From the NCBI GenBank assembly GCA_964016885.1, contig OZ024743.1, positions 354,206,001 through 354,270,000 on the forward strand: 64,000 nucleotides of DNA. The letters are read 5' to 3'. Below, one piece after another: positions 19,401 to 36,812 of this stretch. How positions within the stretch are numbered: the first letter of the stretch is position 1; each line of letters opens with the position of its first letter. Under the pieces are notes generated by a model. That model worked only from the letters and a program-made list of their open reading frames with translations, did no database searches and was not told where the DNA came from. This DNA comes from Eledone cirrhosa. Its lineage: Eukaryota. A program made the translations under genes and the position numbers.

Positions 19401-20032
19401 ATATGAGAGACGTAAAATAAGAAAATTATAAAATTAACTTACTTACTAAAATATCACTTCCAACTAATTAGTTTCTGGAATGGAGTAAATATATTTTCCG
19501 AAGAAGATATGGAGAAACATTCCGTCGTCAGGGAAGTCTATTCTCATCTAAGTTTCCAGGCAAAGCGAGGACTCTGGAAACTTATTAAAAAATAATTCAG
19601 TGGATAGGAAATAGCAAAGCGTGGACTGAATTCCTAGCCATTGAGAAAATCACTGCCTCTGCGTCTGTGGCAAATTCAAAAAGAATCAATCACGTGACAT
19701 CGAGGTCAATCAGTGGAAAGTGGTTTGCTAATAAGACAGCGGCCTGCCTACTACCATAGCAGCAGTCATGGCCAATATTGCTCGACAAATAATTTGGAGA
19801 TAATTATAAAGAATTAATATTTAGTAACATATATATACATACAGATGCATATCAATGCTAGCAAATATATAGGTTTTGTCTTAGTAACATTGTGGGTCAA
19901 TGCATGGGGTTGCAGAACAATAATATGAGAGACGTAAAATAAGAAAATTATAAAATTAACTTACTTACTAAAATATCACTTCCAACTAATTAGTTTCTGG
20001 AATGGAGTAAATATATTTTCCGAAGAAGATAT
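19401..20032 (-). mobile_element. Non-coding HHR cassette (retrozyme-like or non-autonomous PLE): 522-bp unit plus 110-bp partial repeat
   Basis: 19401-19510 is repeated at 19923-20032. One HHR, no recognisable ORF, 3' end abuts (TA)n. Confidence 0.7.
19456..19537 (-). ncRNA. Type I hammerhead ribozyme motif with C.A at the base of stem II
   Basis: Minus strand: ACTTCC-CTGACGA-C-GGAATG...CATTCC-A-GAAA-CTAATTAG-TT-GGAAGT. Stem III ACTAATTAGT is palindromic; triplet GTT. Confidence 0.8.
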
Positions 20033-20036
20033 ATTA

Positions 20037-20874
20037 TAAGTATATCCTAATGTTTGTTGAGTGAGATGGAGTTGGTCGGAGTATCGCTTAAGGCTTTCTC
20101 TGTTTATGTATTGAATATATACTCTTGGGGGCCTGATATGATTTCCAGATATAAGGTATGACTTTTTATTATTATTATTATTTATATGAAATGCTGATTG
20201 ATCTTCCTTGTATCCCATGTCTGATTTAGCCTTAGAGAATAGCTATGTGTGTATATGGGTGATCCATACATGTATTTATTATGTTTTAATATATGTGTGT
20301 GCATTGGTTGTGTATACATATGGTTATTCTTTTAATTTCCAATTGAGTGCTTATACACGTGGTTAATACCTAACAGGTTTAAATGACCAGCGTATATATT
20401 GTTTTATTTTAAGATGACCTCCCTTTACCCTTTTGGGGACAGCGTGTATTTTATCTTTGGGAGGACTGCTGGATTTTCTAATCTACCAGTCTCTTCTTAG
20501 CGCTGAGGGAGACCATCACCATTCTATTAATGTCGATATAATTCTTATATCGATATTATTTGGGCATCCACTGATGAGTTTATAAGAGCCCGCTTGTGTA
20601 TAAAACTATGGATTATATACAAGTTTCTACATAACCTGGAAATTATTTATCCCAAATTGTAGAAATCTTATAACGAAATGGTCGTCTGGAAGGAAAGAGA
20701 TATTTATTTAATAATGTCTCATATAAAATAATACAACCAGCTATGCACGAAATACTGATTAGTTAGCGCCCCAAACACTAAATTGGGATAATATTTAAGT
20801 ATATCCTAATGTTTGTTGAGTGAGATGGATTTGGTCGGAGTATCGCTTAAGGCTTTCTCTGTTTATGTATTGAA
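20037..20874 (+). mobile_element. Non-coding HHR cassette: 759-bp unit plus ~79-bp partial repeat, ending at (TA)n
   Basis: 20037-20115 is repeated at 20796-20874. A related 3'-end fragment lies at 24385-24548. Confidence 0.7.
20567..20690 (+). ncRNA. Type I hammerhead ribozyme motif with a branched stem II
   Basis: TCCA-CTGATGA-GTTTATAAGA...TCTTATAAC-GAAA-TGGTCG-TC-TGGA. Two internal hairpins: CTTGTGTATAA/TTATATACAAG and TTTCTACA/TGTAGAAA. Confidence 0.8.
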
Positions 20875-20904
20875 ATTGTATATATATATATATATATATA
20901 TATA

Positions 20905-33073: not shown

Positions 33074-33221
33074 ATATATATATATATATATATATATATA
33101 TATATATATATATATATATATATATATATATATATATATATATATATATATATATATATATATTATAGTTGATACAGAAAACGAAAAAGAAAACAAAAAA
33201 CAACAACGAGGAAGCAAAGAG

Positions 33222-35817
33222 TTCTATTTAAAATAAATGCTTCTTTTCCCCACCTTTCAGGTGGTTTATATCGTGATGACTGTCTTCTTCTTTCCACTAG
33301 CCTTAGCCTATCAGAAATTGAAAAAAATAAAAAACTTAGAACTTTCCTCAAAGACTATTATAGTCTCACTATTACATTTGAAAACACCAGTAAAGTAGTT
33401 AATTTCCTTGATATAATAACTTTAGACTTATCTACGGGTATCTACCAACCTTACCATAAACCTAACCAAAACTTACATTACATACACTCACAATCCAATC
33501 ACCCTAGATCTATCCTTAAAAACCTAGCATATAATATCTCACTCAGAATTTCTAACCTTTCATCTAACCAGGATGTATTCGATGAAAATACGACCTTTTA
33601 TAACGAAGCTTTAGCTAGAAGCGGCCACAAAAACAAATTAGTATATATACCCTGTACCAATAATACTTCAAACATAAAAACCTAATATTACCAACAAACA
33701 CCAAATGAAAAACACACACCTAAATGCCACTCACACTACCCCAAAATACCAACTTAAAACTGAATTCCTCTACCTCTTCGCACATAAAATATAACATTCA
33801 AAAAACCATTCATCCTAATACTCCAATATATGTTAATAACATTACTAACAAAATTCCTAATAATCAGACTAAAACACCTAAATCAGTTAATCTAACTAAC
33901 CCTATATATAATAAATTCACTAATACTAACTCTCTTAGTAATCATCCTGATACATCGTTTAAATATAAAAAAACAACATCGAAACCGTAATAGACGAGTT
34001 ACCTGGTATAATGCTCCATTTCACCTACACATTAAAGATAACACCCCTAAAAAAGTTTTTACTATCCTACAGAAAAATTTCCAGCCAAAACCATAAATAC
34101 CATCACATTTTAAATAGAACAACTGTCAAATTTTCCTACTCCACTACCAAAAATATACAACAAAATATAAGTGCCTACAATGCATATAAATGTAAAAAAA
34201 AACATGAAAATACCACCAATACATCAAACTAACCATAATACTAAAATAAACCGCAACAAACCACCATCTCTTTCACATATAACAAGTTGAGTAAATTCCA
34301 CACCAAATTTGACTAACTCCCCTGATATAATATTCACGAATGGTTGTAACTGTAGAAACAAAGGAAATTGCCCATTAAAAGGAAATTGTCTTATTAATAA
34401 CATAGTATATAAATGTAAAATTAGCACTAAGGACACAACTTATTCATATATAGGAGCTACTTCTAACCAATTTAAAGTAAGATTTAATACCCACAAACAT
34501 AGTTTTAAAAATGCCGCATTAGCTAATACAAAATCCTTGGCTGAAATAATTAATAATTATTGAAAAATGAATATCGATTATAACCTGACCTGGAGTGTGC
34601 TCAAAAGGCCACCCCTTATCAAAATAACAGATATGAGTGTAGATTATGTTCCCAGGAACTTTTTGAAATAATGAAATTATAAGGATATCCTATTAAATAA
34701 GCGACAAGAATTAATTATATCGTGCAATCATAGTATTAGAAGAACTTTCAAATATTATAAACCTAATTAATATACACCTTACATTTATATTTTACAAATT
34801 ATTATAATTAGTTTTTTTAATTTAGTTAACCTATAATTAGTATTTTACTACTGAGAACTTCATAATTTTATTTCCCTTTTACAGTTCTCTTTTCCTAAAA
34901 TTAATACCTATAAGTATACATATAAACTATTTTAATTTCCTGTTATGAATCTAAATTCCTTGTAGTCTATATAAGTTTGTTATTTTTCACTAATACATTT
35001 ATCCCAACATTTTTTTTTATTCGTCTTTAACAACATTCTTTAATAACATCTAACTCTTATTTATCACATCTATATGAATTAATATAAATTTATCCCTATA
35101 AGTATACCTATCAATTAAATTAATTTAATTTCTTGTTATAGATCTAAATTCCTTGTATTTTAAATAAGATTGGTATTTCTCACTAACACATTTACCCTTA
35201 AATTTTATTCTCCTTCGATTTTAACATTAGCATTACTCTTTAATAACATAACATTTTGGTGCACCTTTCACCAGCTTGACCTCTTTTCATCCCCAAAGTA
35301 ATCTATTCATTCAAAATATTCTTTCCATTCAAAACTTAAGTCTGCATTCCTCTACCCCTAAATTAAATTTCTACTACTACTATTCTATCAACTTGACCAC
35401 TTACTACTTTTCTATTGGTCAATTCAAAACCTGTTCCCAAACAGACCTATTATATTAAATCTTTGCTGGTTTTTTTCAATAAACAAATATCATTATTTCT
35501 GAAGACAGCATATATATGTGTAGGTATGTATATTTCCTCTGATAGTTTGTAAAATTTTTACATAGATCTATATGATATACATACCAACACACACATATAT
35601 ATCCTAGAAACGATCGTAAAATGAGGAATTTTTTTAATATAAGGAACTGTTTCTTTGTTTTTATTAATTGTTTTTATTAATTTATCTTGACTCTGTTTTC
35701 CTGTGATTTTCATCGAAAAAATGTTTGAATACATCTTCTCTTTTCATGATATTTGGATTACATTGAGTTCTTCATACGGATTGGACACTACCGTATATTT
35801 TGGTGGATTCGTCAACA
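33222..35817 (+). mobile_element. Naiad-type PLE, 5'-truncated and decayed (RT end, GIY-YIG, 3' UTR with HHR)
   Basis: YRDD at ~33268; 'VVNFLDI' and 'YIHTQSNHP' follow. ORF 34309-34563 reads 'CNCRNKGNCPLKGNCLINNIVYKC...YIGAT..FKVRFNTH'. Ends at (TA)n. Confidence 0.8.
35493..35624 (+). ncRNA. Type I hammerhead motif with ~100-nt stem II and C.A at its base
   Basis: TTATTT-CTGAAGA-C-AGCATATATATGTGT..GGTATGTATAT / ATATACATACC..ACACATATATATCCT-A-GAAA-CGATCG-TA-AAATGA. Palindromic stem III ACGATCGT; triplet GTA. Confidence 0.7.
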
Positions 35818-35834
35818 TATATATATATATAATT

Positions 35835-36812
35835 TTTTTCTTCTAACTTTGATTTTATACCTAATTGTGTATGGTTAACGATATATTTAACCGATTTCCA
35901 CGTGTTATTAGAAATGCTGGGTAAATATTCTATAGCTGTTGATCGCGGATAAATAGCTGTCGTTTATTTATCTATTATTTCTTCATAGGTGCCTTTTAAT
36001 CTTATAGCCTTGTTTAATTGTTTTTTTTGTGTGGTTGATTATGCTGATTGGGAGAGGAAATAATGTATATATTTTATCAAATGATTCTATGGACATATTT
36101 TATTGTATATTGCTCTGATTGTTGTTTATTTAATTAATTAATTCGTCATTGAGCAACATCGTGAATGGTTGCCAAAAAACACACACATATATATATATCT
36201 ATGACTTTGTCTAGTTTATGTATATGTAAATCTTTATATTTGATAATCTCCCATATGGTTGAGATACAATTTAGGCAGTATTAGGCTGCGCTTTCTAGCA
36301 ACCAGCCCACCCGCCGTAAGGCACCAATCACATTCTTTCTGACTTGACCACTGCCACGTCACAGTACTTAGCCATTTGAATTCGTTTCTGGCGGGGATGA
36401 TTTAAGAAAAATCTTCGTCCAATTAAGTTTGTTTCCTGATGATTTCGAAACTCGTGAATTTATCCTTGATCGGATATTTCCAAAAAGCGAATGAAACCCC
36501 AAGGGGTAGAAACTGTTTTGGTATGCTTATATACATTCTTTCTTCTAACTTTGATTTTATACCTAATTGTGTATGGTTAACGATATATTTAATCGATTTC
36601 CACGTGCTATTAGAAATGGTGGGTAAATATTCTATAGCTGTTGATCGCGGATAGATAGCTGTCGTTTATTTATCTATTATTTCTTCATAGGTGCCGTTTA
36701 ATCTTATAGCCTTGCTTAATTGGTTTTTTGAGTGGTTGATTAGGCTGATTGGGAGAGGAAATAATGTATATATTTTATCAAATAATTCTATGGACATACT
36801 TTATTGTATATC
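35835..36812 (+). mobile_element. Non-coding HHR cassette: 702-bp unit plus ~270-bp partial repeat, between (TA)n tracts
   Basis: 35838-36110 is repeated at 36540-36811. A single HHR lies just upstream of the second repeat. Confidence 0.75.
36431..36513 (+). ncRNA. Type I hammerhead motif with U.U at the base of stem II
   Basis: GTTTC-CTGATGA-T-TTCG...CGAA-T-GAAA-CCCC-AA-GGGG-TA-GAAAC. Confidence 0.75.

Follow-up and report, generated by a model that had tools for sequence, protein, structure and literature searches.

Non-LTR (long terminal repeat) retrozymes of animals are described as hammerhead ribozyme-bearing repeats of 150 to >1000 nt that are likely moved by Penelope-like elements (PLEs) (Cervera & de la Pena 2020, PMC7229834), and have been reported for 35 genomes (31 vertebrates, 3 insects and 1 coral) with units of 51-972 bp, frequent monomers and an origin from PLE pseudo-LTRs (pLTRs) (Li, Clavereau & Pollet 2026, bioRxiv 10.64898/2026.07.22.740005). 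Non-autonomous PLEs are documented in Chlamydomonas (Craig et al. 2021, PMC8557442), and (TA)n is a known target of PLEs from the Hydra, Neptune and Naiad clades. PAc, the sole PLE whose protein has been reconstituted (Frangieh et al., PMC11167929), is reported to extend both DNA strands in vitro from two internal start sites bounding a tail, acting chiefly on uncleaved RNA and without a need for cleavage. The present report concerns a stretch of 64,000 nucleotides from Eledone cirrhosa (assembly GCA_964016885.1, contig OZ024743.1, positions 354,206,001 to 354,270,000 of the forward strand), hereafter the window, and four cassettes within it, named A to D. A-D are high-copy, protein-free mobile families with a hammerhead motif, located in TA repeats, and as judged from their sequence they are very probably non-autonomous PLE-type elements of the non-LTR retrozyme kind. 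An initial sequence-only reading of the window had already proposed non-autonomous, PLE-mobilised, retrozyme-like families; this interpretation is retained, except that the cassettes are not oversized and that Naiad-type helpers were not found.

Cassette A (19405..20032, minus strand) consists of a 106-nt partial copy (20032-19927) and one 522-nt unit, with its 'main' 3' end on a short (TA)n. Cassette B (20031..20874, plus strand) starts head-to-head against A and comprises an 85-nt partial copy and a 759-nt unit with one 3' end, followed by (TA)n at 20879-20908. Cassette C (20909..21792, plus strand) is composed of a 51-nt inverted arm (20909-20959), a 101-nt partial copy, an internal microsatellite, a unit of ~528 nt and a 131-nt tail, and cassette D (35832..36811, plus strand) of a ~280-nt partial copy and a 701-nt unit, flanked by two (TA)n runs. 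A fifth, partial copy (53212-53466) belongs to a subfamily of A, to which it is 74-76% similar, and forms part of a two-arm insertion (53097..53464, plus strand) with an inverted tail arm (53097-53211) and a sense arm (53226-53464). All five copies were found where the sequence-only reading had placed them, and the four cassettes are unrelated in sequence, as it had stated, save for one 27-nt match between C and D. It had recognised the unit and partial copy of C and the truncated copy at 53 kb; the inverted arm and tail of the former, and the inverted arm and subfamily membership of the latter, had been overlooked. A find_repeats-type search was dominated by microsatellites, and periods were taken from self-BLAST of the window. 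The periods given earlier for A, B and D were recovered (A: 522, with a 106-nt repeat of 100% identity; B: 759-760, 85-nt repeat, 97.6%; D: 702, 271-nt repeat, 95.6%); the value of ~584 for C has to be replaced by two offsets, 549 and ~582, which differ because the (TA)n/(TG)n run within the C unit varies in length.

The longest ATG-initiated open reading frame (ORF) in A-D spans 28-75 aa, so that no protein-coding capacity is present, and six PLE protein queries gave no match to the units, in agreement with the earlier remark that no ORF is recognisable. With unit lengths of 522-759 nt and a GC content of 31-35%, A-D lie within the values used to delimit retrozymes (~150-1000 nt, GC <45%), and the lengths fall inside both published ranges given above. 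No tRNA sequence was found in the cassettes, and a Pol III promoter of the SINE (short interspersed element) type was rejected, as neither an A/B box nor a tRNA was detected. A and B meet head-to-head at 20029-20037 with an overlap of a few bases, resembling the two arms of one insertion. A single chimeric insertion of two families is not favoured (3/522 versus 15/759 differences from the family majority, p=0.05); nesting of one cassette in the other is likelier, as their divergence differs about threefold.

A descriptor scan yielded 10 hammerhead matches in the window, none in the reversed window and none in 30 block shuffles; an Rfam scan of the window at E<=1 returned no hammerhead, only microsatellite-driven matches. 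The type I hammerhead of A (19456..19537, minus strand) has a 6-bp stem I, a palindromic stem III and an extra C and A beside stem II, with a predicted cut after 19462 (GUU). That of B (20567..20690, plus strand; predicted cut after 20686, GUC) has a 97-nt stem-loop II, that of D (36431..36513, plus strand; predicted cut after 36508, GUA) a U-U at the base of stem II, and that of the A-subfamily copy at 53326..53407 (plus strand) was found by the descriptor scan. The hammerhead-like fold of C (21429..21516, plus strand; predicted cut after 21508) has a hairpin stem III and a U4C core (CCGAUGA), which the strict scan missed and a relaxed scan detected. The claim of one type I hammerhead in each cassette accordingly stands for A, B, D and the 53.3-kb copy; C shows the same fold, with U4C in place of the canonical core. 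Regarding the C family, the core reads exactly CCGAUGA at 16 of 30 loci, the commonest form, and is of the CTGA type at seven; the U4C variant is reported as weak in vitro and viable in a viroid (PMC3088659).

Between subfamilies of A, stem II occurs as the compensated pairs GGAAT/ATTCC, GTAAG/CTTAC and GAAAG/CTTTC, and stem I of B as TCCA/TGGA or CCCA/TGGG. Stem III of B is palindromic in all subfamily forms (CGGCCG, CGATCG, CAATTG), a feature described as a hallmark of dimer-type PLE hammerheads (PMC4209133). Compensatory changes between subfamilies, present in A, B and D and affecting stems I, II and III, imply selection on the predicted RNA fold. Folding energy was not counted as support: single-strand z-scores against shuffles were 0.3 (A), -1.9 (B), -3.3 (C), -0.4 (D) and -2.1 (53.3-kb copy), only the C region being distinct from shuffles, and the minimum free energy structure predicted for the A region is a three-way junction despite its z of 0.3. 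Two relatives of D elsewhere in the genome (L140:1289-2025 and L162:9038-9579; 70-73%) have the same hammerhead core and wholly different stems I-III, and a long inverted-repeat element in the window (14319-15744), ~70% similar to the 3' part of D, lacks the core in this copy.

A first look gave 2600-3129 candidates per unit in the 3.0-Gb genome. Among 40 scored candidates per unit (the best 30 loci of each search being examined), identities were 98-99% for A, 93-96% for B, 92-95% for D and 81-88% for C; A is a young family (~1% diverged) and C the oldest of the four. A 1-Mb sample, made up of 100 evenly spaced 10-kb stretches of the genome (L121-L220), contained four insertions of A, seven of B, six of C and nine of D, diverged subfamilies included, which extrapolates to ~12,000 (3,000-31,000), 21,000, 18,000 and 27,000 copies, respectively. 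The families are therefore dispersed in many thousands of copies and are not single-copy local duplications, an outcome that the sequence-only reading had left to a copy-number check. The same sample held 51 hammerhead motifs from many families (none in three shuffles or in the reversed sequence), some of which are the ends of coding PLEs. At least a dozen types are represented among the 51, and several lie within direct repeats of 320-670 nt, suggesting many further ORF-less families.

Insertions were parsed at 60 loci each of A, B and D and at 30 loci of C. The statistics on ends and variants do not include C, which is too diverged and carries an internal microsatellite; for A, B and D, counting followed the removal of duplicates, of hits <38 nt, of internal hits of low complexity and of arms truncated by the locus edge. 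Partial tandems with ragged 5' ends and fixed 3' ends are the common structure at A, B, C and D loci. The 63 3' ends of A fall at a main end (29) and a tail end (28), used equally and located 57 and 179 nt past the predicted cut (a tail of 122 nt), with 6 elsewhere; D uses the main end in 57 of 66 cases, the tail end (129 nt) in 7 and others in 2, C has a main end plus a 131-nt tail, and in B all 56 ends are at one position. As the sequence-only reading had noted for the window copies, the 3' end is fused to (TA)n, which follows in 57/62 (A), 50/56 (B) and 57/66 (D) cases. An inverted 5' arm and a tail are present in A, C and D; a head-to-head start against an inverted arm of the same family was seen in 42 of 57 arms of A and 10 of 64 arms of D. 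Regarding the 26 two-arm insertions in which both ends could be classified, 24 paired one main with one tail end (A 19/20, D 5/6; p=5e-6 against 50:50), while eight additional pairs had one unclassified end. With insertion into (TA)n, fixed 3' but variable 5' ends, inverted 5' arms and main/tail pairing, the cassettes bear a PLE footprint. Two cut sites were present in 21/56 arms of A, 8/56 of B and 2/64 of D. Head-to-tail repeats with at least two complete ribozymes occur in A and are rare in B and D; the window copies have one complete ribozyme apiece. One A insertion is an array in which 11 units stand in tandem, accompanied by an inverted arm and a tail.

The 5' ends were compared with the predicted cut after removal of positions forced by the search queries. 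Within -5 to +20 nt of the cut lay 27 of 186 ends, versus 12.2 expected (about twofold, p=1.7e-4), with 13 versus 5.4 in A (p=0.002) and 7 versus 2.4 in D (p=0.01); the excess in A persists at junctions without a TA flank (9 versus 4.0 expected). In a sliding window the maximum count is at offset 0, with a trough immediately upstream (3 versus 10.7). Either cut RNA or stalling at the fold may account for the excess. The cut site is passed by most arms, those ending there numbering 3/30 (B) and 5/32 (D) in the sets obtained with 3' queries. Overlapping pieces of one insertion have 28-55% of their variants in common, compared with 6-11% between insertions, and variants private to one insertion were found in all pieces (A 14, D 11), in some (A 11) or in a single piece (A 167, D 151). 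Because overlapping pieces share even private variants, either one unit was read repeatedly or a single homogenised source was copied. Both arms of an insertion usually represent one haplotype; at locus L008 they represent two different ones. In the 11-unit array of A, a variant absent from 84 other reads (0/84) is present in 11 of the 12 copies covering it, the exception being the 3'-most, and other variants are common to subsets of units. This pattern fits later unequal exchange as well as rolling copying, and because of the subset-shared variants the array was not accepted as proof of rolling-circle copying.

Two coding PLEs in the window are candidate helpers, clade labels being assigned by motif and not by a tree. 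The first is a broken Hydra-type copy (53514..56667, minus strand) with a hammerhead at 53640-53710; relatives elsewhere in the genome have intact 821-aa frames, 97-98% identical among three copies, with the motifs DKT, RW and CxCx5C that mark them as Hydra-type by the definitions of PMC8557442. In this young family, 51 nt separate the hammerhead from the main end, and the tail measures 83 nt, compared with 57 and 122 nt in A. The intact Hydra-type family may serve, as a first guess, as helper for A. The second is a Neptune-type PLE of a young family (36865..44100, minus strand; motifs GxKF, DKG and Cx4CxxC) with a reverse transcriptase (RT) and GIY-YIG frame at 37992-40274, a pLTR and an inverted arm; no hammerhead was found in it by the descriptor scan. 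This copy is intact, with an upstream 367-aa frame lacking a Pfam match and a 72-nt tail in its inverted arm. Regarding the Naiad and Neptune RTs named by the sequence-only reading, the Neptune assignment holds, whereas both proteins carry the endonuclease C-terminally, unlike the N-terminal GIY-YIG of Naiad, and their motifs are Hydra- and Neptune-type. Because neither family shares sequence with A-D, both remain putative helpers. Decayed Hydra-type fragments lie at 18499-19380 (minus strand) and 33173-35510 (plus strand), the latter terminating in a hammerhead half-core right before a TA run.

Like animal non-LTR retrozymes, A-D are non-coding, low-GC, head-to-tail units with one hammerhead each (type I, in C mostly U4C), many monomer-like copies and a proposed PLE origin. 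They differ from retrozyme arrays in that most copies are dispersed insertions of 0.3-1.5 units in (TA)n with PLE tails and inversions, and from non-LTR retrozymes in the long loop II and often non-canonical stem II base of their predicted ribozymes. They resemble non-autonomous Chlamys PLEs such as MRC1 (PMC8557442) in being ORF-less, partial or multicopy head-to-tail elements that target microsatellites; Chlamys PLEs are mostly without hammerheads, unlike A-D. As described for autonomous Hydra-, Neptune- and Poseidon-clade PLEs (PMC8557442; for PAc, PMC11167929), the hammerhead lies near the 3' end and targets are AT-rich or (TA)n, and A, C and D, unlike B, have the two 3' ends bounding a tail and the inverted 5' arms; in contrast to these PLEs, A-D encode no protein, and their tails of 122-131 nt exceed the usual 30-40 bp.

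Several observations weigh against the assignment of A-D to PLE-driven copying, or against the role given to the cut site. A-D show no sequence similarity to the 3' regions of the helper families sampled, whereas Chlamys PLEs generally share 3' sequence with their helpers (PMC8557442) and many Xenopus retrozymes are described as resembling helper ends (bioRxiv 10.64898/2026.07.22.740005); no homologous pLTR was seen among the sampled helpers, and no 3' sequence was shared with an autonomous PLE in 110 segments 3' of PLE endonuclease matches or at four Hydra-type loci, few families having been sampled to their ends. B has neither tail nor inversions (0/56 arms) and likely uses another helper or geometry. 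Its 5' ends at the cut site (7 versus 4.4 expected, p=0.15) are not significant alone, and the -5 to +20 nt interval for this test was picked after the first A and B batches had been viewed. Windows at +195 to +221 reach ratios of 2.0-2.6 on smaller counts, which is partly due to the TA-rich start of the B unit and otherwise unexplained. Across 71 reads of A, the length of repeat junctions at the cut site is unchanged (a single 1-nt deletion appears in the alignments, at unit position 467), an observation that a ligated circle would explain just as well.

As to the template, we consider it somewhat probable that a PLE RT/endonuclease copies the cassettes from mostly uncut RNA of more than unit length and does not depend on a circle. 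Read-through transcription would yield RNA exceeding one unit, and a PLE protein, probably as a dimer, would nick both strands of a (TA)n tract. Reverse transcription would then start internally on the RNA, with one of two fixed sites used for each strand, so that a main arm and a tail arm come to lie head-to-head. With a slow ribozyme, most cDNAs would pass through the cut site and a minority would halt at an RNA cut or at a fold that stalls the enzyme, and a homology-guided template switch would re-read one unit and so rebuild the partial tandem. Alternatively, as in classical retrozymes, two ribozyme cuts may free a unit-length RNA that is ligated to a circle, primed internally and rolled round by the PLE enzyme; such a course is possible, at clearly lower probability. 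Circles are reported as demonstrated for retrozymes of coral, mussel and axolotl (PMC7229834) and a circle model has been proposed for PLEs (PMC4209133), and the seamless cut-site junctions, the private variants present in all overlapping repeats and the private variant in 11 of 12 copies of the long array are in line with it. However, a closed circle leaves 5' ends at the cut site unexplained unless it is cut again, the single complete ribozyme of the window copies and the limited numbers of arms with two cut sites speak against it, as do the different haplotypes at L008, and the subset-shared variants of the array point to later expansion at the DNA level; 8/9 Xenopus retrozyme dimers are reported to have failed to cleave in vitro (bioRxiv 10.64898/2026.07.22.740005). 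A ligated circle and template switching on terminally redundant RNA are both compatible with the insertion data; the latter is preferred because the PLE protein studied in vitro used mainly uncut RNA, because arms with two cut sites are few in B and D, and because of the excess of 5' ends at the cut.

That the cassettes are merely 5'-truncated ends (3' untranslated region or pLTR) of coding PLEs yet to be found is most improbable, although PLE insertions are heavily 5'-truncated, several other hammerheads in the genome are ends of coding PLEs, and the helper search was confined to a few families and to loci with flanks of 1.5 kb. Where arms extend past the unit boundary, they run on into their own unit (A 46/56, B 22/56, D 30/64), and a PLE coding match on the same strand within 1.5 kb upstream was seen for 0/54 (A), 1/56 (B) and 3/63 (D) arms, always beyond a TA run, so that none of the copies inspected is attached to a coding sequence; the possibility raised by the sequence-only reading that the units are always such PLE ends does not fit these data. 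Among 110 segments 3' of PLE endonuclease matches, one matched any A-D unit (C, at L189). There the PLE finishes at its own 3' end and a separate two-arm C insertion follows, and C was rejected as the pLTR of this element. (A count of 0/51 sampled hammerheads with a coding PLE upstream was not used, as the protein set was narrow and some motifs are coding-PLE ends.) The PLE concerned (L189:520-2926) represents a third coding lineage, with 24% identity to the Neptune-type protein of the window; it has a hammerhead core of its own, and numerous fragments of its 3' end occur in the 1-Mb sample. Equally little probability attaches to the view that A-D are satellite-like repeats in which the hammerhead-like motif is passive, dispersed through duplication of the DNA or through recombination of TA tracts: every cassette lies in a microsatellite, the long A array bears traces of turnover at the DNA level, and three of the 98% matches on C17 share flanks and are segmental duplicates, but the end structure, inverted arms, main/tail pairing and unrelated flanks are marks of retrotransposition, and the compensatory stem changes imply selection on an RNA fold. 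An unlikely further view would have A-D as independent circular-RNA parasites without sequence kinship to a helper, recruiting a PLE RT dimer by structure alone, with both internal start sites of one RNA used for priming, each for one DNA strand, and template ends set in vivo by ribozyme cleavage; if true, the genome would preserve direct traces, in fossil form, of the circular intermediate of PLE transposition, which is still unproven.

Other repeats of the window include a near-palindrome of 1.2 kb (45504-46702), each arm of which has two different hammerhead cores ~375 nt apart (46167 and 46541, plus strand; 46044 and 45662, minus strand), a pairing of two types that is unexplained. A further hammerhead cassette family of a short GAAA-CTAG-UA type, with inverted arms, occupies 24780-25965 (motifs at 25509-25551, minus strand, and 25851-25889, plus strand) and has ~14 insertions per Mb in the 1-Mb sample. 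An interspersed repeat of ~180 nt and SINE-like size is present in at least nine copies with 85-93% identity (2876-3054, 12171-12347, 16022-16196, 18814-18993, 29595-29786, 31116-31296, 57663-57858, 58817-59007 and 59394-59583).

Both the class of elements and the circle hypothesis are known from earlier publications. A search of the literature on octopus and cephalopod Penelope elements, hammerhead ribozymes and octopus repeats, with Repbase, Dfam and supplements outside its scope, found no description of such families, and the words 'ribozyme' and 'non-autonomous' are absent from the main text of the O. vulgaris repeat paper (PMC13282606). This is probably the first notice of hammerhead-bearing non-autonomous PLEs in this host group. 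The main/tail pairing, the excess of 5' ends at the cut site and the private variants shared within an insertion are new details. ORF-less hammerhead cassettes form a sizeable repeat class in this genome, with roughly 10^4 copies per family, which Rfam misses. The occurrence of short, young families and intact candidate helpers in one genome offers compact substrates for testing by which template PLEs restore their partial tandems and whether the hammerheads function in vivo; from the insertion statistics, a single start site would be expected on each strand, and only a minority of templates would end at the cut.

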